A stretch of 60,287 nt of DNA, filler included, from Globobulimina sp. (taxonomy: Eukaryota): the NCBI GenBank assembly GCA_003354225.1. It is 7 parts of 7 records of this genome, joined end to end, with 100 filler letters (N's around TTAATTAATTAA, not from the genome) between each part and the next. Parts side by side here need not be neighbours in the genome. Positions count along the whole stretch, not along the records: positions 8,683 to 17,243 come from PIVH01000076.1; 6 more parts are not named here. One strand, 5' to 3'. The position numbers were made by a program, and so were the translations under genes. The notes beneath the pieces were generated by a model. It ran no database searches. It was given only the letters and a program-made list of their open reading frames with translations, and had not been told where the DNA came from. Below, piece by piece: positions 481-59,765 of this stretch. Numbering within the stretch: the stretch's first letter is position 1; every line of letters begins with the position of its first letter.

Positions 481-842
481 CTAAGTCATATGATATATTA
501 TGCAGTTTAGTAACACCCATTGCAGCCGTTTTAGTTTTTGAAAGACTGGCGAAAACTGTCCAAAATAAGAGATTTAATTCGAAGATGATAAGTTATATAC
601 ATTTAATTGAATTATCTAAGAAACTCTCAGTTTTCTATAAGTTTGTATTTGGTTTATTCTATGTACATAATAATAAAACAATAGAGCATGAATCTATAAA
701 ACATTCACAGTGTTAAATTTCAATAATAATTATATAAACACAAAGACAAAAATTTATAGCAATTACATGATTATGAATTTTTATTATTACTAAATTTGAC
801 TTTACAACACTAAAATTAGAATTTAGTATCAAGATACATACA

Positions 843-3062
843 TTGTTATTTATGAAACGCATAATAAATGATAATCAGTGTCATCAAAGATGTAAAAAAT
901 TTAAACACAACATTATAAATCAAAATAGTAAGACGTATCGATATTATTATGCAGATTGCTATCGCATTAAATATAATCCAAATTTTGAAAAAGAAATACA
1001 AAATGTAATAAATAATTCTAAATCAAAAATTATTATTCAAAAAACAAAATTTGGACAAATTGAAAATAATCATAATAACAAAAATATTAAACTCTATTAT
1101 GATGGATATGAATTTATTTCGAATGGATCTAATTTTATTTGCACAAAATGTAAATTTGGGTTACAATTATGCAGACAAAACAATATTGAATTGGTATTTA
1201 GCAATCAATCTGATCATAACTGCATTAACTTTAGAGATTCATCATTATTATCAAAATTATTTTCAGAAATAATTATAACAGAAATTGAATATAATATTAA
1301 GAATGACAGTTATACATCAATAACAAATCATTACGACAATGTGTATTTTAAATATTTAAATAAACATAAAGAAATGGATCTGGATATAGTTTTAAGGAAG
1401 AAACTGGTGGTGGAAAAAAGATTAAGAAAGCAGCGTGAATTTCAATCAGTTAGAGAAAGTAGTGTACAATCATTTATTAAAAAGGGAATTCATAAAAAAA
1501 TATTAAAATCAGTATTCAAAAGTGAAGAAACAGATATTTTAGTAATACCAAATAAAGACATAAATAATGATTCTGTATTTATTACAAGTATATTTCATTT
1601 GAAAATGTTAGGAGGTGGTAATGGTGCATTAGGTGATGGAACATTTGCTTTAAATGTGTCATGTTTGACAAAACATGAACAAATATTTAAGATAAATGTA
1701 ACATATTATTCAAAAACTGCAGCAAATAATCATTCAAAACGAAATAAAAACCATTTCAAAAGAGCTGCTGTTTATTTTTGTGGCATTGCGATTTTACAAA
1801 AGAAAGATATACCTCAATATGAATGGTTGTTTGGGGTAATTAATAATTTGTTTATACAAAATGGTATAAAAATAAAATTTACAACATACATTAGCGATTT
1901 TGAATGGGCACAAAGAAAAGCTTGGAAGAAGATATTTCCGTTAATTTTAACACAAGGTGAAACATTTCATTGGAATGGATGTATTTGGAAAGCTATACAA
2001 AGATTTCATTTAAAATGTTTATATGAAGTTAAGAAATATAGTAAAGATAATCAAATCAAATATGATTTTCGTTTTAGAGCAATTATTGAAATAATTTGGA
2101 CATTTCCATATATTCCGAAACAAAGAATATTAATTGTTTGGAAAAATGTTGTTATGTTATTTCTCGAACTTAGTCTAGTACTAAATGATATTGATATATC
2201 CAAAGGTATTATTCAATTAATATGTTATATACAAAATCAATGGATGGAAATACATGTTCATGGTTGTAGAAAAAGTCAATGGAAATTTGATGATTGGATT
2301 ATATACCAATGTTTAATTACATCAAATAATGCAACAGAAGCATTAAACAGACACCATATGTCAAACATTGAAAAACATCCAGAAATATTTAAATTTTTTT
2401 ATTGGTCATTTCGTGAATTACAAAAATCCAAACATAATTTTATACAAGATCAACAACATCCAAACAGTGTTTCTTTGCAACGAGAAAAAATTATTATCAA
2501 AAACGAAAGAGCCAATAAAATGGCAGAAACAATATTAAATACTAACGATGAAAAAGTAATAATGGATGAGGTGTTAAAATTTAGTTTTGTATTAACAGAG
2601 TATAGAGGAAAAATAAATATATATAATAGATATAAAACTACAACTTATAATATTGAAACAAATACAAATAATTCGGATATAAACTTAGATTTGAAACAAT
2701 TTTGTAACAGTAAAGAAATTAAAATAATTGGACAATATGATGGGAAATCTATTGAAGTTGAAGGACAAAATTGTGATAAACAACTAAATGTCAATTATAT
2801 ATATACAATGAATATTGATAAAAAATTATATACTAAATTAGAATTAGGTACAACATGGGTGGTCACAAAAAGTATAAACAAAAATTGGCCAAAAATGAGA
2901 AAGAATATGATAATTAAATTTAAAAATGGAAATAATATCATCGAAAGAAAAGTATTTAAAATTACAATCATACCTGGATATAATCACAATAAAAATAAGA
3001 ATGATAAATTTGCTTTAAAATTTGAGTTGACACCAATATTACCAAAATTTGATTTATCCTAA
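843..3062 (+). CDS. Mutator/MULE-family DDE transposase
   Basis: Catalytic motifs GDGTF (D1), ISDFE (D2), GETFHW (CxxH position) and TSNNATEALN (E). FLYWCH/WRKY-like zinc finger upstream (YDGYEF...CTKC...HNC). First ATG at 852. Confidence 0.85.
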   Translation: MLFMKRIINDNQCHQRCKKFKHNIINQNSKTYRYYYADCYRIKYNPNFEKEIQNVINNSKSKIIIQKTKFGQIENNHNNKNIKLYYDGYEFISNGSNFICTKCKFGLQLCRQNNIELVFSNQSDHNCINFRDSSLLSKLFSEIIITEIEYNIKNDSYTSITNHYDNVYFKYLNKHKEMDLDIVLRKKLVVEKRLRKQREFQSVRESSVQSFIKKGIHKKILKSVFKSEETDILVIPNKDINNDSVFITSIFHLKMLGGGNGALGDGTFALNVSCLTKHEQIFKINVTYYSKTAANNHSKRNKNHFKRAAVYFCGIAILQKKDIPQYEWLFGVINNLFIQNGIKIKFTTYISDFEWAQRKAWKKIFPLILTQGETFHWNGCIWKAIQRFHLKCLYEVKKYSKDNQIKYDFRFRAIIEIIWTFPYIPKQRILIVWKNVVMLFLELSLVLNDIDISKGIIQLICYIQNQWMEIHVHGCRKSQWKFDDWIIYQCLITSNNATEALNRHHMSNIEKHPEIFKFFYWSFRELQKSKHNFIQDQQHPNSVSLQREKIIIKNERANKMAETILNTNDEKVIMDEVLKFSFVLTEYRGKINIYNRYKTTTYNIETNTNNSDINLDLKQFCNSKEIKIIGQYDGKSIEVEGQNCDKQLNVNYIYTMNIDKKLYTKLELGTTWVVTKSINKNWPKMRKNMIIKFKNGNNIIERKVFKITIIPGYNHNKNKNDKFALKFELTPILPKFDLS

Positions 3063-3114
3063 ATATGATTGTCATTGTTGAAATTGTATTTCATTTAAAA
3101 TGTTTAACAAATAA

Positions 3115-3184
3115 ACTCATAATTTCTTCTTTTTTTAGAATCCATTTATAACTTTTCTCTATTATTACATATAAACTCATAACT
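3115..3184 (+). promoter_or_regulatory. Duplicated ~70-bp upstream block, copy 1
   Basis: Closely matches 4354..4423; ends about 60 bp before the ATG at 3243. Confidence 0.7.
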
Positions 3185-3242
3185 TTAATTTACTTATACT
3201 AATAATTTAACTCGATTAGAGTCACAGTTTCACAACAATAAA

Positions 3243-4322
3243 ATGGAGATATTGCCAGATGTAATTATTCAAATGATATTGTCATTCGATGAATATTGTA
3301 TAGAATATAGATTTGTAAGTAAAGTATTCAAAAACGCATCAGATAAAAATAATAGAATGAAATTAAAACAAAGAAAACAAACAATTAATGATGATCATGA
3401 AGCAAATATACATATTAAAAATACATATTTTGTTGATGGTGTTGATGCGGAATATTGGATTATTGATAAAAAACGTACTCAATTAAAAGATAAAGAAATT
3501 ACATTAGGATATAAAGGTCCAATTAATAATATTATGGATGCGATCGAGAATTGTAAATCTGGAGATACATTGCTGATTTATGATGGAAAATACAAAATTA
3601 AACATAAATTTGTCGGAGCAATCAGCCAATTAAATAAAATATCATTTATTGGAATGGGAGCAAATGTTATTTTTGAACAAATTCCGGCATTAATTTTTGA
3701 AGAAAATAATAATCATAGTACTATTTTTGTGAAAAATGATGTATATTTCAAAAACATTCGTTTTGATTGTGAAGATACCGGTCAGCTTGGATTAATCTGT
3801 GTAGTAGATAACGGTAACCTTTGGATGGAAAATTGTAAAATGTCATTTACTGGTTGCCCATTTGACAGGTATTGTAATGGAATTGTTATGCATGAATCGA
3901 TGGGGAAAAAACAGTCCATATACTTAAAACACTGTGAGTTTGAGGATCTATTGTGTGCTGTGTCTATATTTGCAGGAATAACTGGTGCGACTATCTTGGG
4001 ATGTAAATTTACAAATTGTGGATTCATGGAAGATGGATACGGAACACCAACTATTGCTGTACAAACATGGGAAGATGAATCTTCAATTTTTAAGAGCAAA
4101 ATTAGAATTATTGGTAATGAAGTGTTTGATGATGATATTGGGAAATGGATTGCATTTTGTTCTTATCAAAAGTTTAACGATTGGTTTAGTGAATTTGGCT
4201 CAAGATTTATATATGAAATAAAAAATAATTCAATCAAAGGGACAAATGCAATATTTACAAATGTAAACAATAAACCAGAAAAGCGTAATCCTAACAAGAT
4301 TTATTTGATGACATACTTTTAA
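3243..4322 (+). CDS. F-box-like plus right-handed beta-helix protein (FBXO10/11-like architecture)
   Basis: N-terminal ILPDVIIQMILSF...FVSKVF F-box-like motif. IMDAIENCKSGDTLLIYDGKY is a typical beta-helix entry, followed by repeated NC/HCEF-type coils. Confidence 0.65.
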   Translation: MEILPDVIIQMILSFDEYCIEYRFVSKVFKNASDKNNRMKLKQRKQTINDDHEANIHIKNTYFVDGVDAEYWIIDKKRTQLKDKEITLGYKGPINNIMDAIENCKSGDTLLIYDGKYKIKHKFVGAISQLNKISFIGMGANVIFEQIPALIFEENNNHSTIFVKNDVYFKNIRFDCEDTGQLGLICVVDNGNLWMENCKMSFTGCPFDRYCNGIVMHESMGKKQSIYLKHCEFEDLLCAVSIFAGITGATILGCKFTNCGFMEDGYGTPTIAVQTWEDESSIFKSKIRIIGNEVFDDDIGKWIAFCSYQKFNDWFSEFGSRFIYEIKNNSIKGTNAIFTNVNNKPEKRNPNKIYLMTYF

Positions 4323-6196: not shown

Positions 6197-6367
6197 GCAA
6201 TTTAGCTGTGTTTGTTGTGAGATGCGCGATGCAATTTGGTTGTGTTTGCTGCCTAAGATTCGCGATGCAATTTGGCTGTGTTTGATGTGAGATTCACGGT
6301 GCAATTTGGCTGTGTTTGGTGTCTAAGATTCGCGATGCAATTTGGCTGTGTTTGATTCGCGATGCAA
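6197..6367. repeat. Tandem array of alternating 34/36-bp units (GCAATTTGGCTGTGTTTG core)
   Basis: Units start at 6197, 6231, 6267, 6301 and 6337 (34, 36, 34, 36, 27 bp), giving a 70-bp higher-order dimer. Confidence 0.95.
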
Positions 6368-11361: not shown

Positions 11362-11550
11362 TTTTTTCCTTTTTTTTTGTTTACGTATATGTTTTCACGA
11401 AATGAGAGCAATTTGAAGCTAAAGCTAAACGATGACTAGGTCACTTGGAAGGAAAATATAATGTTAAAAACGAAAACGATACTTAATCCTTAGATTTCTA
11501 AAAAAAACATGCTCGCAAGCATAATAATTGTATTTTGTCAGTAAAATCGA

Positions 11551-11586
11551 GGCTGGTAACGTGTTTTCAGAAACACGTTATCAGCC
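11551..11586. repeat. 16-bp inverted repeat (hairpin)
   Basis: GGCTGGTAACGTGTTT-TCAG-AAACACGTTATCAGCC with one G-T pair. Confidence 0.85.
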
Positions 11587-11870
11587 GAGATTATGTAACT
11601 GACTTTTGATACAATGTTTTACCAAAAAAAATGACCATACAGCGAATTTTGCCATAATTTATAATCTTCATATTTATGTTTTCGGCTTTTTGATTAGTTT
11701 CATGGGATAAATATATCACAATTTATTCACAAAACAAAACAACACAAAACAGATAATATATTCATAACTCGATGACATTAAAATACGAACGAGATCGACA
11801 TGCAACGGTCGATGACATTAACTCAAAGTCCAAAGCTTTTTTAAGCTTTACATCAAAAACAATGGATGCT

Positions 11871-12268
11871 GGCGGAGCGAAGCGACTCATCCATGGATAT
11901 ATGGTATTTATTAATGTATTTATGGCGGCGACGGAGTCGCCTCATCAATGGATATCGAATTTATTATGGTACATATGGGCGGCGACGGAGTCGCATCAAC
12001 GACCGATATAAAACGTATTTTTATGGTATCTATGGGCGGCGACGGAGTCGCCTCATTGGTCGAAACATATTTTATTATGGTATCTATGGATTATTGTATC
12101 TATGGCGGCGACGAAGTCGCCTTATCGGTTTCGCGAAACCGAATTTATTATGGTATCTATTGCGGCGACGGAGTCGCCTTATCGATAGAGGCGAATTTAT
12201 TATGTGATGAATAGCTATTATGGTATCTATGGGCGGCGACGAAGTCGCCTCAGCGGTCGAAACCGATT
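11871..12268. repeat. Degenerate tandem array with GGCGAC-G(G/A)A-GTCGCC hairpin cores
   Basis: Cores at 11927, 11981, 12038, 12107, 12164 and 12235, each preceded by TATGGTATCTATGG-like sequence. Periods 54-71 bp. A degenerate first unit lies near 11871. Confidence 0.92.
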
Positions 12269-12277
12269 TTTTCTATT

Positions 12278-12340
12278 GTGATGATAGCTCATTGGAGCAT
12301 CTTATTAAATAAGATTTGGGTTCAAATCCCAATCATCACA
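12278..12340 (+). ncRNA. Miniaturised tRNA-like element with Pol III A and B boxes
   Basis: Acceptor stem GTGATGA/TCATCAC, D stem GCTC/GAGC, anticodon-arm stem ATCTT/AAGAT, T stem TTGGG/CCCAA with TTCAAAT loop, followed directly by T6. Confidence 0.7.
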
Positions 12341-13609
12341 TTTTTTGTTTTTTATTTTGTGATGCAGCCAATGTGTGTTTTTTTCACGTACAAGTTGTGT
12401 TTTTCGTTTCTATTTTACTACATCTAGGGCTTTTGTAAGCTAAAGTTCGTTAACAATAAAACAGTTTTACTGGCGTTTTTTTTGGTAAAATGAATTATTC
12501 ACTTCAAATAATACTTGTTTCTGTTGACTATAATTTCGTTGTGTTGACTGTGTTTTCTTTTCGTGTCTTTTTGTTTACAAAAGGCACAAAATCGTACCGT
12601 TTCTGTGGAAAGAACTCTAATGTTTGTATATATTGCATTTCATCTGAAACACTTTGTTTCTTTCTGTTTTTATATGTGTCATACTGTCATTATTTATTAA
12701 ATATGGACATATGCCATAATTATGATTTTTTTTAATTTAATTTAATAGTTCGAAGGAGAATGAGTACAGTTTTACAAAACATAGCGTAACACAAAAATAC
12801 CACGTTTCAAACAACATAATTAAAGCACACAGCACAAAGGGAAAAGGAAAAGGGGAAAAAAAAGAGAAACTAAAATGAAGGCTGAATAGCTAGCAATTAT
12901 TGTAAAACAAACAAAAGTCAACAACTGAACACATACACACAACACAACAAACACAACAAGCAAAGGACACAAAGGCGAAAATATTACCGATTAAATGAGT
13001 AATACATTTAAATGTGTTTTCATTGAGTGACAATGTTACAATTTAAATTGCATTTTTTTTTAATATTAATATGCAAAAAAAACAAATATTTTTGAATAAA
13101 AAATAAAAAAAAGGGGGAAGGGGGACGTTGAACAAATTTTAATTATGTATAATTTTTATAACAATATCATAACTAATTAATTTTATTAATACAATATAAG
13201 CGATGCAGATTTAGAGTATACAGTTTTTTTTTTAATTTTTGTTGATGTTTCGCCCGCTTCCGTGCTAGTTTTAATCTGTACATCAACAAAAAATAGATGT
13301 CACATAAATATAAATATAAATAAACGATTATTAGAATTCGTGCATTAACTGAATCGAAAGCAAAGTCACTAATTCAGTACAATTTTATTCGTCCCAGCCA
13401 CGATATCAAGGTTTCTAAAAACTTTATGATATAAAAAATGGAGGTAATTATGTATTATATCCTTTTCAACATAAATATGATTGATATGATTAAACATTTA
13501 TTCGATTAGTCTAATAAATATAGACTGTAGACGGATAAAATAAACGTACTGAATTATCGACTTTGCTTTCAATTCAGTTAAATGCACTAATTCTATTCGC
13601 AATGATGTT

Positions 13610-38878: not shown

Positions 38879-40614
38879 ATAATATAATTCCAAATCTGAA
38901 AGAAATAGACTCAGAGTGTGCTGATTTACTCCAAGAATTAGTTCAATTATGGGAAAATCCGCCAGAAATTAAACAACATTTCAATATTAGTTTATTCCGT
39001 GAATATTTAAGTGATCATCCTAATGGTGAAATAGAAATTAAATTCATTGAGGATGGATATCCATTACATTTAAGAAATCGTGATCCAACAAAATTATGCA
39101 AAGTAGTATCAAATATAGTCAGAGACAAACGTGATTTAAAAGAAATATTAACAAGGATAGTAAAGGAAGCAAAAAAAGCATACATAACACGAACAGATTG
39201 TCAATTACATTATAATTTGAATGTTTTATGTGTTCCTAAAAAGAATAATGATACAAATTTAATGACTGAGATACGTGTAGCTAGACATGGTTCTTTTGCC
39301 ACACAAAGATCAGTTCCCATCAATAAATTAATATCAAAAGAAAAATGCAAAATACCAACACTTCCCAATATCCGTAAATATATAACCTTGCTTTTGAAAT
39401 ATAATTACGTGTCTCTTCGTGACTTAAAAGATGCTTTCAGACAATTGAATGTTGCATCAATTGATGCAAACTATATACAATATTGCATTTTTGGATTATC
39501 TTTCAGAGATCTCAGACAAGCGTATGGTATCGCTTCAGCAGCAGCAAATTGTCAACAATTTGCTCAAATTCTAATATGGATTTTACAAAATAAATATTTA
39601 AATACTCATCAAAGGGACAGAATACTTGTCCATATTGATGATTTTATTTTAGCTGCAGATTCCGAAGAAGAAGCCTTATTTCTTGCAAATAAATTTGATG
39701 AGATGTGTGATCAGTTAAATGTAACAGTGTCACATGCCAAGGATGAAAATGCGATCTGTGAAGGTGTGGTACATGGAATAGGTTTTAATTTAAAAACAAA
39801 ACATGTACACATACCTCCTCATAAATATAATGAACTATTAAAAGGGATAAAACTAATAATTAAATATCGATATGCAACGGGACGAGCGCTTGAATCTATT
39901 TGTGGGAAAATAATGCATTGGTCTCAACTAAGGAAACCTGCGAAGATTCTTTGTTATCGATTATTACGTTTAATTCACGAGAAAATCAGAGCAAATTCAA
40001 AATTAAAGAATAAAGTATTTTGGATACCTGATCCTATAATTCGTGATTTAAAATTCTAGCTACAATATGCGACATTTATGCGCAAAGTAACCATGAAATC
40101 AGTGATTCAACAACCTTCAATAACAATTTCAGGAGCGACAGATGCGAGCAATCTCGGTGGTGGTTTTATTGTTGGTTCACATTATGGTGCATATAAATTT
40201 TGTGATGAATCAAATGAATACGGTATCAATCATAGACGAATGCATATAAATTATCAGGAAGCGCACGCTGTGATAATGCTATTGTATAATTATCGTCACA
40301 TACTTTCAGGTCGTCAACTATTACTATACATTGATAATACATCAGTAATGTATAGCATTTACAAACATTGGGCCGGAAGTATAGATTTAATGGAATATGT
40401 ACAGGAAATTGTATTGTTAATGTGTGTTTATTCAATAGGTTTGAGAGTTGAATTTATACCATCAACCTTTAATGGATTGGCTGATTCTTTGTCACGTTTT
40501 GATTGGAAACGATTCTATGATGAAATTGATCTTTATAATTTACCAATGAATAACAAACAGACATTGCTTGAATACTATCCAATTTTGAAATTATTGCGTA
40601 AATATGACTTATAA
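38879..40614 (+). pseudogene. DIRS-type reverse transcriptase plus RNase H, interrupted by TAG at 40057
   Basis: VPKK, DLKDAFRQL, YGIASA and HIDDF (RT). ATDAS, HINYQE, IDNTS and NGLADSLSR (RNase H) in the same frame. The stop falls where Trp is expected (DLKF*LQY). Confidence 0.88.
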
Positions 40615-51932: not shown

Positions 51933-54900
51933 TTACTGCGGATCATCATCATCTGCAGATTCTAATTGGTCGCCAAATTCGTTTCTATAATCCAGTGGTT
52001 TATCATTGGCTTTTTTACATTTTCCATCTTTGTACATTCGGATTAGGTCATTTCTTGTACATTTAATAAATTTTACGATCGCTTTGATGATTCTTACACG
52101 TAATTTTATTTCTAATTTGAACGGCGGGAAGAATAGCGACCTTTGGATGTGATTTATTGTGCCATTCTCGTCAAACTTACGTTTATCTGTTTCCTTTACT
52201 GCCAATTCATTGTGCGAGTTATAAATGTTATTAATTTCACCAAATAATAGTTTACGAGGTGCCAAATAGTGCACAGCTTGGCACTCAACAAAATAATGCA
52301 TTATAGTTTCATCATATTGGTTCATATCACATTCGCTATGTTGTTGGCAGTAAGGATGGAATGAATGGTTATTTGCTTTGTATGCCATATATGTATTCAA
52401 TGGCAACTGGTCCGCCATACACATGACTCTGACGTCGTTTTCTATGGCTGATAAGAATGGGATTATTTGTGCGTATTTCTTTGGTTCCCATCTAATATTT
52501 AGCTCATAATAATGTCGTCCCCATCCATATGGATAGTTACTGTAAAATAGCTCAAATTTGTTTTGATTCCATATGTTTTCATCGTATTTGTTGGCTAAAT
52601 ACTTAATCTCCGATTTTATTGTTTTATAAGCTATCATATTATTTGGGTTGAGCCACGTTGATTGGTCATCAATTAAAATGTGTTGATTATTATTATAAAA
52701 TAAATCTTTCTCAATTTCCGGTTGGTTGGCCAATTTTACTTTATTTCTCGTCTTACTTTCAATGATTTTATCCTTTTCAGTTATTTCTTTTGTAAAACAT
52801 AACCTGGCCATTCCAGCCGCACATTTTGCCAATTCATCCACCAAATTATTCATCTCAGATTCAGAGTGACTATGAACCCAATAAAATTTGATGAAATTGA
52901 CAATATATTCAAAGTCCGATATCTTTCTGATCTCTGCATTTAATTTAATATACAGATTTATTATCACGTCGTCCTTTGGTGTGTGTTTTTGGGATATTAT
53001 ATTAAGACAGTTTTGACTGTCTGTTATTATCGCCACGCTCTCCGCTTTCATCACATATTTCTCTCTATTTCTTGGGTCATTTAGCCATATTAGCGATTGC
53101 CATATGACATAAAATTCCATTACATTTATGTGAGTGCGGATTGACAGCGGCAATGTTATGGTGTCTATCACATCAAATCCGTAGTATATCACCACGGCAC
53201 ATCCCCCAATTCCAAAAATTGAACTTTTCGGATCATTGTCATATGGATAGACAGATCCGTCGGGAACAAAGCATAGCATCTTTGCTTTCAACATACCATC
53301 TTTCCACATATTGTCATAGCTAATAAATTGGATTGAATTTGGTATTGGGTCCGGGATGAATTTGTATACGAATCTGCTTACATAATTGCCACAAATATAC
53401 GTTTTTGTGTCCATTGACCCCAATTCTATTGAGTCACTGTACCATTTCCATAGTGCATTTTTAGATCTCTTGTCTTTGGGAATATGCCTAAGTTTATCAC
53501 GGATATTATAGCCATTTTGGATTTTATTATAAAGCGGCCTTATTTCATTAATAAATTGACATTTTTTATCGTAAAGTCCATTATTTTCATTGCAACGTAA
53601 TAGTTTCGAGAACGATTTGGCATTTAATCTCTTCATAAATGAGTCGAATGTATTAAATCCATTGAAATTATTTCTTTCCATTATAGACAATGTATACAAT
53701 TTGTTATTGAATATTCGTATTAGTTTATTGTATTCAACTCTTATTTTATTATCATTTATCATATTAATATACGTAGATCCCGCATAATTTAGCAACGATA
53801 TCGCCGTTGCATCAATAAAATACTTTGTAACGCCTGCACTTATTTTGTTGTGTTTACTACTTAATAATTTGTAGCAGCTTCGCCTTATTACTCGCATATC
53901 ACTCAATATTTTGTTTGTATGCTGCTTAAATGTCCAAAGATTATCTAATTCCATGCCGAGTATAACAAAGCTATCGGAATGGTCATGATTGGTATTTCCG
54001 TCCATCGTAAATTCATATTTTCTGTATATACTTAACCAATCAATTAATTTTAATTCAATTTTTTTTTGATTGTTTACGAATTGCAAATATTCGCATTTAT
54101 TCATAACAACTATGCATTTTTCGTCATCTTCGTTAGTTACATAATGCCATATTTGTTCCCTTACTGCGTAATTTACTATATTTTCTGCATTGCAATTTGC
54201 GAATTTCTGATTTAATACATTTATAATTATTCGCTTTGTGAATACGTACATTGGTTTGGAGTTTTTTTGGATCTTTTTTTGATTTTTTTGGACGATTGTT
54301 TTCTGCAATTTGCTTATTATTGGAATGCATTCATCAAATTCACCCCTAAGTTGCTCAAATTTTTGATAATAATAATCTTTAAATATAACAATATGCGATT
54401 TATCATCATTTGTCGGTATGTTATTTACGTTAAAATACTCTCTAATAAAATTCATTGCTTTTTGTATCATCGGATACATTTTTGATAAAATAAACATATA
54501 CTTTTTGTTTGACTGCAATTGGATGAATTTATTAATCGATATTTCTTTGTTCATAATAGATTCTTTATATTCATCGGTTGCGTCTCTTTTAATAGTATTA
54601 TTATTATTTATTTTTATGTAAAAATTTACATCATCCATTAATACTTTCGGCTGGATTTTTGCTAATTGGTTGCCATTATTTTCATCAAATAATATATAAT
54701 TTCTATCCAAATGCAGACCGCCAGGATTTATATAAATGCACCAAGCAAATCCCGCCGGTATAAATCCCTGCGAAAATAATGAATTTAATGGCTTGAATAC
54801 ATCAGAATTTTGATTATTTACTCTACAAATTGATCGGACGTTACTTGTAAACGACTTAAACATTACGATGGCTGCTTCATTAAATCCGCAATGATATCGC

Positions 54901-57335
54901 ATTTTATCTTCAATAATCGCCGGAAACATAGAGTTATATGCACTGCTCGAGTCGTTTGAGACTAATACAGTCGGAAAACCATTACAAATCATATCATCAA
55001 TGTCCGTAATCATATTTGTTAGACAGTCTTCGGAGCCCGATGCCATTTTTGATGCGAACTGGTGCACCATTAATAATTTATATTTCTCCGCATATACAGC
55101 AATTCTATTAAACACCATAATTGTATACACTTTTAATATAATGACGCCATATTCGAGCGGCCGTAGTGACCCAATCAATCTCTTATCTTTGCCACCTTTA
55201 ACTAATGGGTTCATGAGGCGTTCATTCATGTTATTGGTTACAACGCCGTTATCTTTCCACCAATCATATACTAATAGCAATATATCAGCAATTTGGTGTT
55301 CAGCGTGTACCAATAATAGCAGATGGATGTCACCATGGAATGCCTTATTTGGATCTGCTGTGTTGAGTGCGTAATGCAATTCTGATTTTGTGAATGGTTC
55401 AACTAAGCGGTTTGCTGCCAGTTTCCATTTTGCAACTTCATCAATTTGATAATCTGATAAAGTGTTTCTATCCGCTTCGGACCATATTTTTGGTCGGAAA
55501 TCATACGGTGAGTCAAGTTCACGTGCTCTGCTTCGTGACCTTTTAACCTTTGTATCATACAAAGGGTTTGATTTATGGCCAATTGTGTTCATAAATTTTG
55601 CGATTACATTTGCTTTTTCTTTATCATCATAGATAAAATCATCGTATTTCAGGTTTGCATCTACTTTTTTTGTGATTTTTTTTATTGCTTTTGATAATTT
55701 CACTAATTTGCCTATTGTCCGGGTACTATTTTTATCATTGTCGCCATCTAATTTCTTTACTAAACTGTACCATGACTTTGATTTGTATTCATTTATAGTT
55801 TTCATATCTTGTTTTTTCTTTATTTTGCGTTTTTCATTTCGGACTTTTCGGCCTTTCATTCTATCCATAACCTTCCAATTCTGATAAATATTCCATCGCT
55901 TATACCCAATTTTATCGATAATAAATTGTTTTGGGCACTTTCTTATGAGTTCGCTACGCTTTTTATACCACTTTTTTTTGATGTTTACCACTGATTTAAT
56001 GATAGATTTGTATTTTCTGCGGTAATCTCGCGTACGTTGTATAATTTGCTTTATTTCCTTACTTAATACCAATACTCGCCCAACGCGGTTTGTTTTTTTT
56101 CCAAAGTGAAATTCCGCGGAGTTTGTCATTAAATTCTTTGCGTGTTTCATAATCATCGATATCTGCTCAATTGGTCTGGAATTTGATGGGTTGTAACTAC
56201 CATAGCTATCAATTATACCTTTCATTGATAACATTTTTATATCCAAATCATTCTGATATTTCTGGATGTTTTGCTTTGTCATATTATTCAGTTTCCATGT
56301 CGTTTTTGTAAAACGTTTTCGTTGTTTGATTGTATTGACATTCATTAAAAACATATGATTTGGATAATGGTCGGAGATATTTTCGGGGATATAATTGTTA
56401 ATGATTTGAATACGTCCTTTTTTGTTTATATTTGTCCAAATTGTATCTATTATCGATTCATTTTTCATGCCATACTTATCGATTACAAATCTGGTATTTT
56501 GTCCATATTTATTTATATTATTTAGACCGATTTTGTTCATTGCCACAAATAACTTGTCGCCATCGCAATATTTTCGTATTAAATTATGCCGTTTCTCCTC
56601 ATTTCTATCAATCGATCCTATTAATTCTGAACGTATATTATAGTCGCCACCATTTATAATTGTTGGCGTCTTATCATTCATGTAATTTGCAATGTAATTA
56701 TGGATTATTTTAATGTTTTTTGGGTTCGTCGCATTAATATTTGGTGATCTATAGGCATTCCACAGAATTATTTTGTCGCGGTTTCTGTATTTTTTTCGGA
56801 GTTTTAGCACCACAGCACATGAATGGATGTTATTTTGTGGGTCTACGTCAATTAAATCATGCGGTATGTCGATAGAACTTACGTTATTTACCATATTATT
56901 TCTTATATATATTGATGTAATGCCAATTTTATCATTTGCAATGCGTGTCATCCCAATCAATTTTGCGAATTCATCTTCTTTCGCTAATTTATAGCCCCTA
57001 TAATTTTTGAATCCAACCGTTTCTTGGAACATACAAATATGCGGATTTTTATCATTTATGTACATAGTTACTTCATCTTTTTTGATTGAATTTGCGTTCA
57101 TTCCTCCATCAACGTTCCATGTTATTATCTTGATTTTATTTGATTTGCATACTAGCGGATTTATTATTCGCCGTTTAGCGTTTCTGGTAGGTACCGTACC
57201 ATGTTTTTTATGTGATTTTTTGTTATTGTTTATTTTGTGTGGTACGTTAATGGGTTTTGGTCTTATTTCAAATGGATACCTTGCATACCATTCCGGTGTA
57301 TTTCTCTTTAATGGTTTTTGTTTACTTCTTGGCAT
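51933..57335 (-). CDS. LINE ORF2: AP endonuclease, reverse transcriptase, RNase H and C-terminal Cys/His motif
   Basis: APE: ITWNVDG, FQET, GGDYN, IIDTIW, SDHYP. RT: LRPL, NDSSSAYN, SQG, LMDD, ILGMELD. RNase H: PDGS, VMEF, ITDSQ, WVHSH, NNLVDELAK. C-terminus: C...ETIMHYFVEC. Confidence 0.92.
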   Translation of the reverse strand: MPRSKQKPLKRNTPEWYARYPFEIRPKPINVPHKINNNKKSHKKHGTVPTRNAKRRIINPLVCKSNKIKIITWNVDGGMNANSIKKDEVTMYINDKNPHICMFQETVGFKNYRGYKLAKEDEFAKLIGMTRIANDKIGITSIYIRNNMVNNVSSIDIPHDLIDVDPQNNIHSCAVVLKLRKKYRNRDKIILWNAYRSPNINATNPKNIKIIHNYIANYMNDKTPTIINGGDYNIRSELIGSIDRNEEKRHNLIRKYCDGDKLFVAMNKIGLNNINKYGQNTRFVIDKYGMKNESIIDTIWTNINKKGRIQIINNYIPENISDHYPNHMFLMNVNTIKQRKRFTKTTWKLNNMTKQNIQKYQNDLDIKMLSMKGIIDSYGSYNPSNSRPIEQISMIMKHAKNLMTNSAEFHFGKKTNRVGRVLVLSKEIKQIIQRTRDYRRKYKSIIKSVVNIKKKWYKKRSELIRKCPKQFIIDKIGYKRWNIYQNWKVMDRMKGRKVRNEKRKIKKKQDMKTINEYKSKSWYSLVKKLDGDNDKNSTRTIGKLVKLSKAIKKITKKVDANLKYDDFIYDDKEKANVIAKFMNTIGHKSNPLYDTKVKRSRSRARELDSPYDFRPKIWSEADRNTLSDYQIDEVAKWKLAANRLVEPFTKSELHYALNTADPNKAFHGDIHLLLLVHAEHQIADILLLVYDWWKDNGVVTNNMNERLMNPLVKGGKDKRLIGSLRPLEYGVIILKVYTIMVFNRIAVYAEKYKLLMVHQFASKMASGSEDCLTNMITDIDDMICNGFPTVLVSNDSSSAYNSMFPAIIEDKMRYHCGFNEAAIVMFKSFTSNVRSICRVNNQNSDVFKPLNSLFSQGFIPAGFAWCIYINPGGLHLDRNYILFDENNGNQLAKIQPKVLMDDVNFYIKINNNNTIKRDATDEYKESIMNKEISINKFIQLQSNKKYMFILSKMYPMIQKAMNFIREYFNVNNIPTNDDKSHIVIFKDYYYQKFEQLRGEFDECIPIISKLQKTIVQKNQKKIQKNSKPMYVFTKRIIINVLNQKFANCNAENIVNYAVREQIWHYVTNEDDEKCIVVMNKCEYLQFVNNQKKIELKLIDWLSIYRKYEFTMDGNTNHDHSDSFVILGMELDNLWTFKQHTNKILSDMRVIRRSCYKLLSSKHNKISAGVTKYFIDATAISLLNYAGSTYINMINDNKIRVEYNKLIRIFNNKLYTLSIMERNNFNGFNTFDSFMKRLNAKSFSKLLRCNENNGLYDKKCQFINEIRPLYNKIQNGYNIRDKLRHIPKDKRSKNALWKWYSDSIELGSMDTKTYICGNYVSRFVYKFIPDPIPNSIQFISYDNMWKDGMLKAKMLCFVPDGSVYPYDNDPKSSIFGIGGCAVVIYYGFDVIDTITLPLSIRTHINVMEFYVIWQSLIWLNDPRNREKYVMKAESVAIITDSQNCLNIISQKHTPKDDVIINLYIKLNAEIRKISDFEYIVNFIKFYWVHSHSESEMNNLVDELAKCAAGMARLCFTKEITEKDKIIESKTRNKVKLANQPEIEKDLFYNNNQHILIDDQSTWLNPNNMIAYKTIKSEIKYLANKYDENIWNQNKFELFYSNYPYGWGRHYYELNIRWEPKKYAQIIPFLSAIENDVRVMCMADQLPLNTYMAYKANNHSFHPYCQQHSECDMNQYDETIMHYFVECQAVHYLAPRKLLFGEINNIYNSHNELAVKETDKRKFDENGTINHIQRSLFFPPFKLEIKLRVRIIKAIVKFIKCTRNDLIRMYKDGKCKKANDKPLDYRNEFGDQLESADDDDPQ

Positions 57336-59297: not shown

Positions 59298-59765
59298 CTA
59301 GCAACAAGGTGCCATTATGGTAGTGAGGTAGTGAGGTAGTGAGGTAGTGAGGTAGTGAGGTTCCTTTCCACAGTCATCACATTCAATATAATGCATTGCT
59401 ATATTCGTCGAATCCGCTTTCTTTTGCCATCGCGTAACTTGTTTATGCTTACATGTATTTATTGAATCTAATGAATTCTGCACATTACTTAATGCAGTGT
59501 TAATTGATACATTTTTATACGTAATTGGTATATTTCTGTATCCCGATGTCGTGGGTGTCTGGCTGGCAGATTTGGGTGTTACTGATACTGACTGCAAATC
59601 TGAGCGTGGTGTTACTGAATCCGAGCGCGGTGTGCTTACCACTGAGCCAAATGACTGCTTCTCTGCAAACATCAACATATTGTTGCCATACACAACCGAT
59701 TGAAACGTTGCAAGAGCTGATAAATCATTGCAAGTGATATTATCCACATTTTCTGATTTGAACAT
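59298..59765 (-). CDS. Small ORF with zinc-ribbon-like motif, possibly an extra ORF of the LINE
   Basis: Repeated SVTP(R/K)S motifs and CKH...YIECDDCGK. ATG at 59765. Confidence 0.4.
   Translation of the reverse strand: MFKSENVDNITCNDLSALATFQSVVYGNNMLMFAEKQSFGSVVSTPRSDSVTPRSDLQSVSVTPKSASQTPTTSGYRNIPITYKNVSINTALSNVQNSLDSINTCKHKQVTRWQKKADSTNIAMHYIECDDCGKEPHYLTTSLPHYLTTIMAPCC
59319..59360. repeat. Microsatellite (GGTAGTGA)x5
   Basis: Five perfect 8-bp copies. Confidence 0.95.

Follow-up and report, generated by a model that had tools for sequence, protein, structure and literature searches.

Some short interspersed nuclear elements (SINEs), the 'simple' ones, consist of little more than a tRNA-related head, and it is such a head that the element described here appears to act most like. 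The element is a miniature tRNA-like cloverleaf of 63 nt, which follows an array of small hairpins on the + strand of a 60,287-nt stretch of DNA from Globobulimina sp. (assembly GCA_003354225.1; the part concerned comes from PIVH01000076.1). The whole stretch is called the window below, and all positions without a contig name count along it. With tRNA-derived SINEs the element shares a tRNA-related, box-bearing sequence, high copy number, dispersal, a drifting anticodon region and confinement to one lineage. In contrast to them, it has neither a body nor a tail derived from a long interspersed nuclear element (LINE) or rich in A, shows no target-site duplications, ends in oligo-T, and is tied to a hairpin minisatellite and to a composite repeat of ~0.95 kb. 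As a kind, tRNA-derived repeats are known; the tight link with a hairpin minisatellite is unusual, and we know of no counterpart for a fixed partnership between a tRNA-like sequence and a hyper-stable GNA-hairpin minisatellite.

Three further systems invite comparison. The miniaturised tRNAs of animal mitochondria, the class recognised by ARWEN or by ARAGORN in its -mt mode, resemble the element in length (63-65 nt), in a short D loop without G18G19, in a minimal variable region and in the absence of D-loop/T-loop contact, whereas the element here lies in a nuclear context with oligo-T, most copies have the canonical T loop (GGTTCAAATCC), and the copies are many and differ in anticodon. The mascRNA of MALAT1 and the tRNA-like element of NEAT1 are 3'-end modules of long non-coding RNAs and substrates of RNase P and RNase Z, upstream of which an A-rich tract and U-rich motifs form a triple helix. 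Like our element, they combine conservation of the acceptor/T domain with degeneracy of the anticodon arm and lie at the 3' end of a conserved non-coding unit; our element, too, would be a substrate of these enzymes and not a decoder. Here, however, there is no A-rich/U-rich triple-helix element, T runs that would stop Pol III lie between array and cloverleaf, and the module is multi-copy. In the gammaherpesvirus MHV68, tRNA-like/pre-miRNA units of RNA polymerase III (Pol III) carry hairpins downstream within the Pol III transcript; they likewise couple a non-decoding tRNA-like sequence to small hairpins, but here the hairpins stand upstream and the terminator directly follows the cloverleaf.

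The tRNA gene arrays of Entamoeba consist of whole repeated units of tRNA gene plus short tandem repeat, with canonical tRNAs. They share with the present locus the tie between tRNA-type genes and short tandem repeats in an AT-rich protist genome, but here the hairpin unit alone repeats and one miniature tRNA-like sequence closes each array. Short tandem repeats between the Entamoeba tRNA genes are described in the available part of PMC3079666.

The miniature cloverleaf and its family

The features at the centre of this work are the following.
12278..12340, + strand: miniature tRNA-like cloverleaf of 63 nt, recognised by its fold, its score against the Rfam tRNA model RF00005, a family covariance model (R1, below) and ARAGORN -mt
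12341..12346, + strand: T6 run resembling a Pol III terminator, directly 3' of the discriminator base

From 5' to 3' the cloverleaf reads GTGATGA-TA-GCTC-ATTG-GAGC-A-TCTT-ATTAAAT-AAGA-T-TTGGG-TTCAAAT-CCCAA-TCATCAC-A, that is, an acceptor stem GTGATGA/TCATCAC, the spacer TA, a D arm around the loop ATTG, an anticodon arm with the stem ATCTT/AAGAT, a T arm around TTCAAAT and the discriminator A. A sequence-only reading of the window had described four perfect stems, and all pairs are indeed Watson-Crick (acceptor 7/7, D 4/4, anticodon 5/5, T 5/5); the D loop of 4 nt, the variable region of 0-1 nt, the box strings and the T6 run that it listed were also found. The A-box-like string TAGCTCATTGG lies at 12285-12295 and the B-box-like string GGTTCAAATCC at 12319-12329, 34 nt apart and both at the expected positions when judged against the general A- and B-box consensus. 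The minimum free energy (MFE) of the cloverleaf is -23 kcal/mol against a shuffle mean of -9.57 (z -5.27), and none of 200 shuffles was as stable.

The element divides the standard tools. Against RF00005 it reaches 42.3 bits (gathering score 29; E 1.2e-5 for the whole window) and is the sole match across the 60 kb at E 0.1 or better; the E-value mode reports it, while the fast gathering-mode scan loses it in its filters. Standard ARAGORN finds no tRNA in the window, lowered thresholds included, and its metazoan-mitochondrial modes (-mt/-mtmam) call a 65-nt mtRNA-Leu(taa) with a 7-nt anticodon loop and without a variable loop. The anticodon UAA proposed from sequence is thus drawn by ARAGORN -mt, but in the MFE fold the T at 12310 lets pairing extend into that loop, leaving 3 unpaired nt at the tip of a 7-bp stem, so that UAA in a 7-nt loop is just one possible reading of this copy. 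Most other copies carry G38, which keeps the loop open. In canonical cytosolic tRNAs the D loop contains G18G19 and measures ~7-11 nt, the variable region is no shorter than 4 nt, and the species for Leu and Ser carry a long variable arm. The window copy has the 7/4/5/5-bp stems of such a tRNA and passes the tRNA covariance score, but its D loop (ATTG) and variable region fall outside these limits.

The element is not single copy, contrary to one of the outcomes that would have undone the sequence-only reading. We assembled 16 copies, namely that in the window and 15 from public contigs (L001-L010, L012, L014-L017). An exact 23-nt T-arm/acceptor pattern retrieved seven metagenome contigs (L001-L007) and three contigs (L008-L010; 592-1,140 bp, 32-33% G+C) of G001, a 3.1-Mb assembly labelled as a gammaproteobacterial metagenome-assembled genome (MAG); viral contigs gave no match to it. 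The covariance model R1, built on these ten copies and the window, was then applied to G001, where 150 of 6,449 first-look candidates were scored and at least eight strong matches were obtained, five of them new (L012, L014-L017; 79.6-90.4 bits). The window copy itself scores 87.9 bits against R1 and is 95% identical to L012 and 94% to L017. Within the window, a mismatch search found no further full or partial copy besides the fragment at 12203-12216 described below. Existing tools see little of this family: among the five copies found by R1, the E-value mode of Rfam (E 0.1 or better) lists L014 and misses L012 and L015-L017, ARAGORN mislabels the L006 copy as tRNA-Ile(aat), and on the composite loci Rfam returns only tRNA and sub-threshold noise. 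G001, the source of L008-L020, contains many small AT-rich contigs with eukaryotic tRNA genes, mini-tRNA composites and eukaryote-like open reading frames (ORFs), and these small contigs look like mis-binned protist DNA.

Most copies have the 64 nt of the family consensus. The 5' strand GTGATGA is invariant in 16/16 copies, though no search pattern constrained that end. D loops are 4-5 nt long (ATTG, AATGA, AAAGA, AAGAA, AATAC, AAAAC, AATA, AAAA) and never contain GG. The anticodon triplet is UAA in six copies, UGA in five, and CGA, UCA (L007) and UAU in one each; two copies have a 6-nt or enlarged anticodon loop, and L010 is full of insertions. Bodies that carry differing anticodons are nevertheless 84-98% identical (72-80% for the insertion-laden L010), and U33 and A37 are retained in the 7-nt-loop reading. 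In an alignment of 11 copies, 95.2% of cells are paired and one D-stem pair changes from C-G to U-A, a compensatory change, in three copies. The earlier argument that a decaying pseudogene would break stems and that here only the loops are trimmed does not hold family-wide: in the same alignment the anticodon stem is mismatched at one pair in 4/11 copies and at another in 3/11, and among the remaining copies some T loops are changed at positions 55/56. Invariance of the T arm and 3' acceptor strand in the 11 copies is partly by construction, because the search pattern fixes both; the stems are still invariant in the five copies found by R1, whose T loops read TCCAAAT or TCTAAAT. A run of at least four Ts starts no more than 3 nt from the discriminator in 11/16 copies, against 5-8% of random positions. 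Across the family, the acceptor/T 'top half' is conserved, the loops vary freely and the anticodon arm is held only loosely; conservation of structure is real but modest.

Abundance was gauged by placing contigs of four public sequencing runs on positions 11400-13600. In the run that covers this region best (X1), contigs in the unique flanks have a depth of 3-15, and the bin 12288-12361 sums to 16,054, a sum of contig depths that is not a copy number. Thirty-five X1 contigs have T>G at 12310, five have A>G at 12307 (the central base of the anticodon), and in some the D loop is longer by an A or a C. Loose ends diverge just before 12276/12296 and after 12344-12346, which together with the depth points to a heavily repeated unit bounded by the cloverleaf plus its T run. 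In the contig placement, four variants at 10% or more lie between 12307 and 12315 and none between 12316 and 12381. In another run (X6), a 2,580-nt contig of depth 385 carries a diverged copy.

We also compared the element with the canonical tRNAs of a related contig. L020, from G001, holds six tRNAs accepted by standard ARAGORN with normal D loops, including an 84-nt type-II tRNA-Leu(taa). Alignment of the mini element with any of the six takes many gaps, so that derivation from a normal host tRNA by simple deletions, another outcome that would have told against the sequence-only reading, was not seen for the tRNAs compared. The nearest relatives are instead short-D-loop tRNA-like sequences at L007:1061-1127 (-) and L019:418-486 (+), which share the D arm and an AGAAGAT-plus-T-loop segment with the mini family. 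These two form a second tRNA-like family of their own, with RF00005 scores of 37.7 and 31.1 bits, a D loop of 5 nt, the anticodon stem CTGGA/TCCAG, an anticodon loop of 4-13 nt, the variable region AAGAT and no oligo-T behind. The tRNAs of L020:1-1339 are Thr-tgt, Leu-taa, Ile-aat, Gln-ttg, an 86-nt Ile-aat call (maybe with an intron) and Phe-gaa; the first ~130 bases of the contig recur at 1210-1339, and L020 resembles a single unit of a ~1.2-kb cluster of tRNA genes repeated in tandem.

The hairpin array and the composite repeat

The cloverleaf closes a longer conserved unit, with these further features in the window.
11545..11592, + strand: 5' boundary hairpin, an inverted repeat with 22-nt arms (11545-11566 and 11571-11592), 86% complementary
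11609..11717, + strand: conserved 5' blocks, …ATACAATG.TTTA…AAAAATGACCATACAG… and …TTTCGGCTTTTTGATT.GTTTCATGGGA, aligned with L012, L015 and L016
11790..11869, + strand: conserved pre-array block, ending in the 19-mer CATCAAAAACAATGGATGC (11851-11869)
11870..12277, + strand: tandem array, a degenerate unit (11870-11897) followed by six units of 54-71 nt, with a T6 run at 12267-12272
12203..12216, + strand: partial mini-tRNA 5' end TGTGATGAATAGCT in array unit 5, preceded by the leader AATTTATTA of the array units
12397..12417, + strand: T-rich tail motif GTGTTTTTCGTTTCTATTTTA, common to L012, L014 and L016 and looser in L017
12465..12490, + strand: right arm of a long-range inverted repeat, TTTTACTGGCGTTTTTTTTGGTAAAA, the probable 3' limit, with counterparts in L012 and L014

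Each array unit consists of an A/T-rich leader TTTATTATGGTATCTATGG and a hairpin GGCGAC-GRA-GTCGCC. The pattern GGCGACGRAGTCGCC matches six hairpins between 11927 and 12249, each on the + strand, where 0.01 would be expected by chance, and five of the six have perfect 6-bp stems with GNA loops; the array reported before the cloverleaf is therefore present, as is the partial copy of the cloverleaf inside it. That copy (12203-12216) joins a unit leader to the first 13 nt of the cloverleaf with one inserted base, visible by eye only. GCGAAGC/GNA mini-hairpins are characterised as exceptionally stable DNA hairpins in the portions available of PMC13037366 and PMC3201870.

The association holds across the family. 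Among the 14 copies with at least 80 nt of upstream sequence (L002 and L005 have too little and were left out), a tandem array precedes the mini-tRNA in nine (window, L001, L003, L007, L012, L014-L017), a single G+C hairpin with leader in two (L006, L009), other hairpin-like repeats in one (L010), and nothing comparable in two (L004, L008). To the question raised with the sequence-only reading, whether copies always follow the array, the answer is thus that most assessable copies do, but not all. The arrays themselves vary: L003 has ~600 nt of units with different hairpin sequences, L001 two units with the stem AGCAGC/GCTGCT and L007 a variant array, while the five copies found by R1 follow arrays of GGCGGC-GAA-GCCGCC or GGCGAC-GCA-GTCGCC. 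In these arrays the motif TATTATGG stands on the cloverleaf strand. The stem types GGCGAC/GTCGCC, GGCGGC/GCCGCC and GCGAGC/GCTCGC co-vary with full complementarity, and every loop reads GNA on the cloverleaf strand. In the reciprocal direction, all 23 matches to the hairpin pattern in the 3.1 Mb of G001 fall in four contigs, each with a mini-tRNA downstream on the same strand, and a reversed control pattern gave no match there. A solitary leader plus GGCGAC-GCA-GTCGCC unit was also observed at L006:331-406 (-), ~330 nt downstream of the L006 mini-tRNA, indicating that hairpin units can stand singly, away from the array position.

Other identities for the array units were considered and set aside. 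They are not degenerate whole tRNAs, as R1 has no match in the array at E 1 or better and what is shared is the leader plus the first 13 nt. Nor are they Helitron ends or hammerhead ribozymes, the units having no CTRR end and no GAAA core, respectively. ORFs inside the arrays are repeat artefacts.

Homology between the window and L012 and L014-L017 reaches beyond the array on both sides. The 5' boundary hairpin has a homologous block in L012 and L016, similarity to these loci beginning at 11561, and the 19-mer CATCAAAAACAATGGATGC, unique in the window, is found with 0-1 mismatch upstream of the array in all four array-bearing G001 contigs. A left arm at 11617-11631, inside the 5' blocks, has a perfect 15-nt inverted-repeat partner at 12476-12490; both arms change together in the L014/L016 subfamily, so that they differ between subfamilies and match within each copy. 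In a fold of the whole element the right arm pairs with 11617-11640 and the cloverleaf is kept (z -4.9 on 20 shuffles). Overall the copies are ~70-77% identical, with the blocks and the long-range inverted repeat conserved. Because blocks, 19-mer, tail and arm are shared with L012 and L014-L017, the window holds one copy of a ~0.95-kb composite (about 11545-12490), whose order is 5' block, hairpin minisatellite, mini-tRNA, oligo-T, and a T-rich tail ending in an inverted repeat of the 5' block. The composite array-plus-tRNA-like element suggested by the sequence-only reading is borne out by the array count, the reciprocal matches and the conserved flanks. In X1 the composite has a depth of 60-320, against 4-5 for unique sequence, and is greatly outnumbered by mini-tRNA copies. 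One X6 contig joins 11869 to 12143 and represents the 5' block followed by a shorter array.

Competing explanations

With moderate confidence, we read the window element as a member of a lineage-specific, multi-copy, tRNA-derived repeat family, a presumptive Pol III-type unit that would be selfish or neutral and would not decode. The parts of this reading differ in strength: that there is a multi-copy tRNA-derived element inside a composite repeat is near certain, and for the part that would have it transcribed by Pol III and selfish or neutral the balance is about even. A Pol III module or tRNA mimic, as first suggested from the DNA, is consistent with what we find. As a Pol III-type unit, the mini-tRNA would be complete in itself, its promoter lying inside it and its terminator abutting, and its product may be a tRNA-shaped small RNA gripped by tRNA end-processing enzymes through its acceptor/T minihelix, without a decoding role. 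The array could grow and shrink by slippage or unequal exchange between its like leaders and very stable hairpins, since array units and mini-tRNA share the leader; the hybrid unit at 12203-12216 would be a trace of such exchange. The family probably spread at the DNA level, with or without the composite, and not as a classical retroposed SINE, because target-site duplications above shuffled controls were found in 0/12 assessable copies and upstream flanks are shared within subfamilies.

Several points weigh against this account. The covariation is thin, with 1/21 pairs compensatory, and measures over the whole structure stand barely above shuffles (13 of 500). Eleven of the 16 copies were found by a pattern that fixes the T arm and the 3' acceptor strand, and the abundance rests on summed depth. 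C56 is critical for TFIIIC binding, and the T-loop changes at 55/56 in the five composite copies (TCCAAAT, TCTAAAT) fall inside the B-box core, so that Pol III activity of these copies is doubtful. None of the 12 assessable copies showed target-site duplications. The family may also serve the host and not be a selfish repeat, given the conserved blocks of the composite and the strict invariance of the acceptor stem.

Taken from the more to the less probable, the first alternative is just such a host-functional module, unlikely in our judgement, though the leading rival. The tRNA-shaped sequence would then be a processing, 3'-end-forming or protein-binding signal of a conserved non-coding composite locus, possibly through RNase P/Z cleavage of an array-bearing transcript or as a TFIIIC-bound boundary element. 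It would explain why the 5' acceptor strand is invariant in 16/16 copies with bodies differing by 5-25%, why blocks and long-range inverted repeat are kept between copies only ~70-77% identical, and why the arms change together between subfamilies; the whole-element fold, with its cloverleaf kept and arms paired, points the same way, although its z of -4.9 comes from 20 shuffles only. The X6 contig that joins 11869 to 12143 would fit as well, if X6 is an RNA run, which is a guess. On the other hand, the runs of 4-6 Ts in the array and at 12267-12272 would stop Pol III read-through, no MALAT1-type A-rich tract lies upstream (in the window as in L012-L017, the 20 nt there are of T-rich or mixed composition), and the solo copies L004 and L008 have no array at all.

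Bolder than this, and decidedly doubtful on present sequence evidence, is a set of proposals in which the family would be a new foraminiferan class of Pol III small RNAs with a functional acceptor/T minihelix, in the boldest form nuclear-encoded miniature adaptors or mimics for mitochondria that have no tRNA genes. In that case the GNA-hairpin minisatellite would serve these genes as a cis-module of their own, perhaps by signalling through hairpins of single-strand DNA to control transcription or copy number, and the composite would be a new kind of gene.

A classical tRNA-derived SINE, in which Pol III transcripts of master copies are reverse-transcribed by a LINE and re-inserted, is improbable. 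High abundance amid unrelated flanks and a tRNA-related head with A/B-box-like strings, in many dispersed copies, are what such a SINE would show; the window also carries reverse-transcriptase and RNase H ORFs (39217-40059 and 51933-57335), and L004 and L003 share only the cloverleaf (from about -4) and ~36 nt downstream. Against it, the unit has no body and ends in oligo-T, no LINE-related, A-rich or simple-repeat tail and no sequence common across subfamilies was found after that oligo-T, and the search for target-site duplications came out at 0/12. Moreover, at least 38 nt upstream of the element are common to L001, L005 and L007, sequence that a Pol III transcript would not contain.

That the element is a working tRNA is very unlikely, also in the form of a non-canonical one such as a nuclear-encoded miniature adaptor imported into Retaria mitochondria. 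Its metazoan-mitochondrial shape, the ARAGORN -mt call of Leu(UAA) and the kept U33 and A37 would suit an adaptor, and the L007 anticodon UCA would read UGA. Retarian mitogenomes are described as having no tRNA genes in the available part of PMC10127745, and that of a planktonic foraminiferan, annotated under code 4, has a single trnK according to the part available of PMC13421374. Yet five anticodons sit on near-identical bodies, where a decoder should have one per body, and this rules out specific charging. The anticodon stem is mismatched in many copies, the loop is closed to 3 nt in the window copy and L012, a depth of thousands-fold is atypical of a tRNA isoacceptor gene, and canonical tRNAs including Leu(UAA) exist in related contigs.

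Finally, an organellar origin of the cloverleaf appears unlikely, and the explanation that combines it with its alternative, either an inserted piece of organellar DNA bearing tRNA-Leu(UAA) or a lone tRNA pseudogene decaying in the nucleus, is hardly credible. The ARAGORN -mt call, the X6 contig of 2,580 nt at depth 385 with its diverged copy, and the report of mitochondrial sequences copied into the nucleus in the foraminiferan Astrammina (PMC3079666, as far as available) speak for this explanation. Against it, the element is flanked by a composite repeat of nuclear type with oligo-T and not by organellar genes, the published retarian mitogenomes carry zero or one tRNA gene in the parts available of PMC10127745 and PMC13421374, at least 16 copies stand in unrelated contexts beside eukaryotic coding sequence, and the six canonical tRNAs are not alignable by simple deletions and the nearest sequences are other short-D-loop tRNA-likes.

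Genomic context and significance

The window has a G+C content of 25-43% and is dense in long ORFs, among them a protein kinase, a myosin motor interrupted by a single short intron, an ion channel, a MAD checkpoint protein and an NLI/FCP1 (NIF) phosphatase, a content that points to a compact nuclear eukaryotic genome. The closest matches of the phosphatase ORF are protist or environmental sequences at 60-73% identity, the first named one being from the foraminiferan Reticulomyxa filosa (51%); on this match the AT-rich, intron-poor host would probably belong to the Foraminifera or to a closely related rhizarian group.

Traces of mobile and repeated DNA occur elsewhere in the window. A weak MULE transposase domain (23.3 bits, below the cut-off) lies at 843-3062; the reverse-transcriptase sequence at 39217-40059 is a fragment, and the RNase H domain at 51933-57335 sits in an ORF of 1,800 aa. 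Positions 12732-13323 have a depth of 2-6 in X1 but 750-3,800 in X4, with parts at ~85-390 in X6 and 45-136 in X7, which may mean that related organisms, and only they, carry it as a repeat or in abundance, or may stem from its AT-rich low complexity. An inverted repeat resembling a miniature inverted-repeat transposable element (MITE), with 45-nt arms that are 84% complementary and 147 nt apart, lies at 13345-13389 and 13537-13581, and several runs have alternative joints at 13394-13514. A 36/70-nt tandem repeat (2.3-4.6 copies, 83-91% matches) is found at 6197-6356 and a perfect (GGTAGTGA) x5.4 microsatellite at 59319-59361. For the element itself, a MITE reading based on an 8-bp terminal inverted repeat (TGTGATGA...TCATCACA) was rejected for want of a consistent flanking duplication, and a role as primer for a long terminal repeat element was also tried: in the window, the complement of its 3' end plus CCA matches, at three or fewer mismatches, the element itself only.

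Foraminiferan genomes are almost unexplored. Descriptions of tRNA-like repeats or of Pol III elements in Foraminifera were not found, a provisional negative from a search outside which subscription papers and supplements fell; the 2011 survey of Astrammina, in the portion available, lists ordinary tRNA genes only (PMC3079666). Standard tRNA finders and the fast filters of Rfam overlook elements of the kind described here, and small foraminiferan contigs that carry mini-tRNAs end up binned in a bacterial MAG. If an RNA is made from the element and is functional, it would bear on how the tRNA-gene-less mitochondria of Retaria are supplied. For the nuclear genome, the family indicates that a tRNA gene can shrink to a four-armed form of 64 nt and multiply greatly, keeping only its acceptor/T 'top half'.

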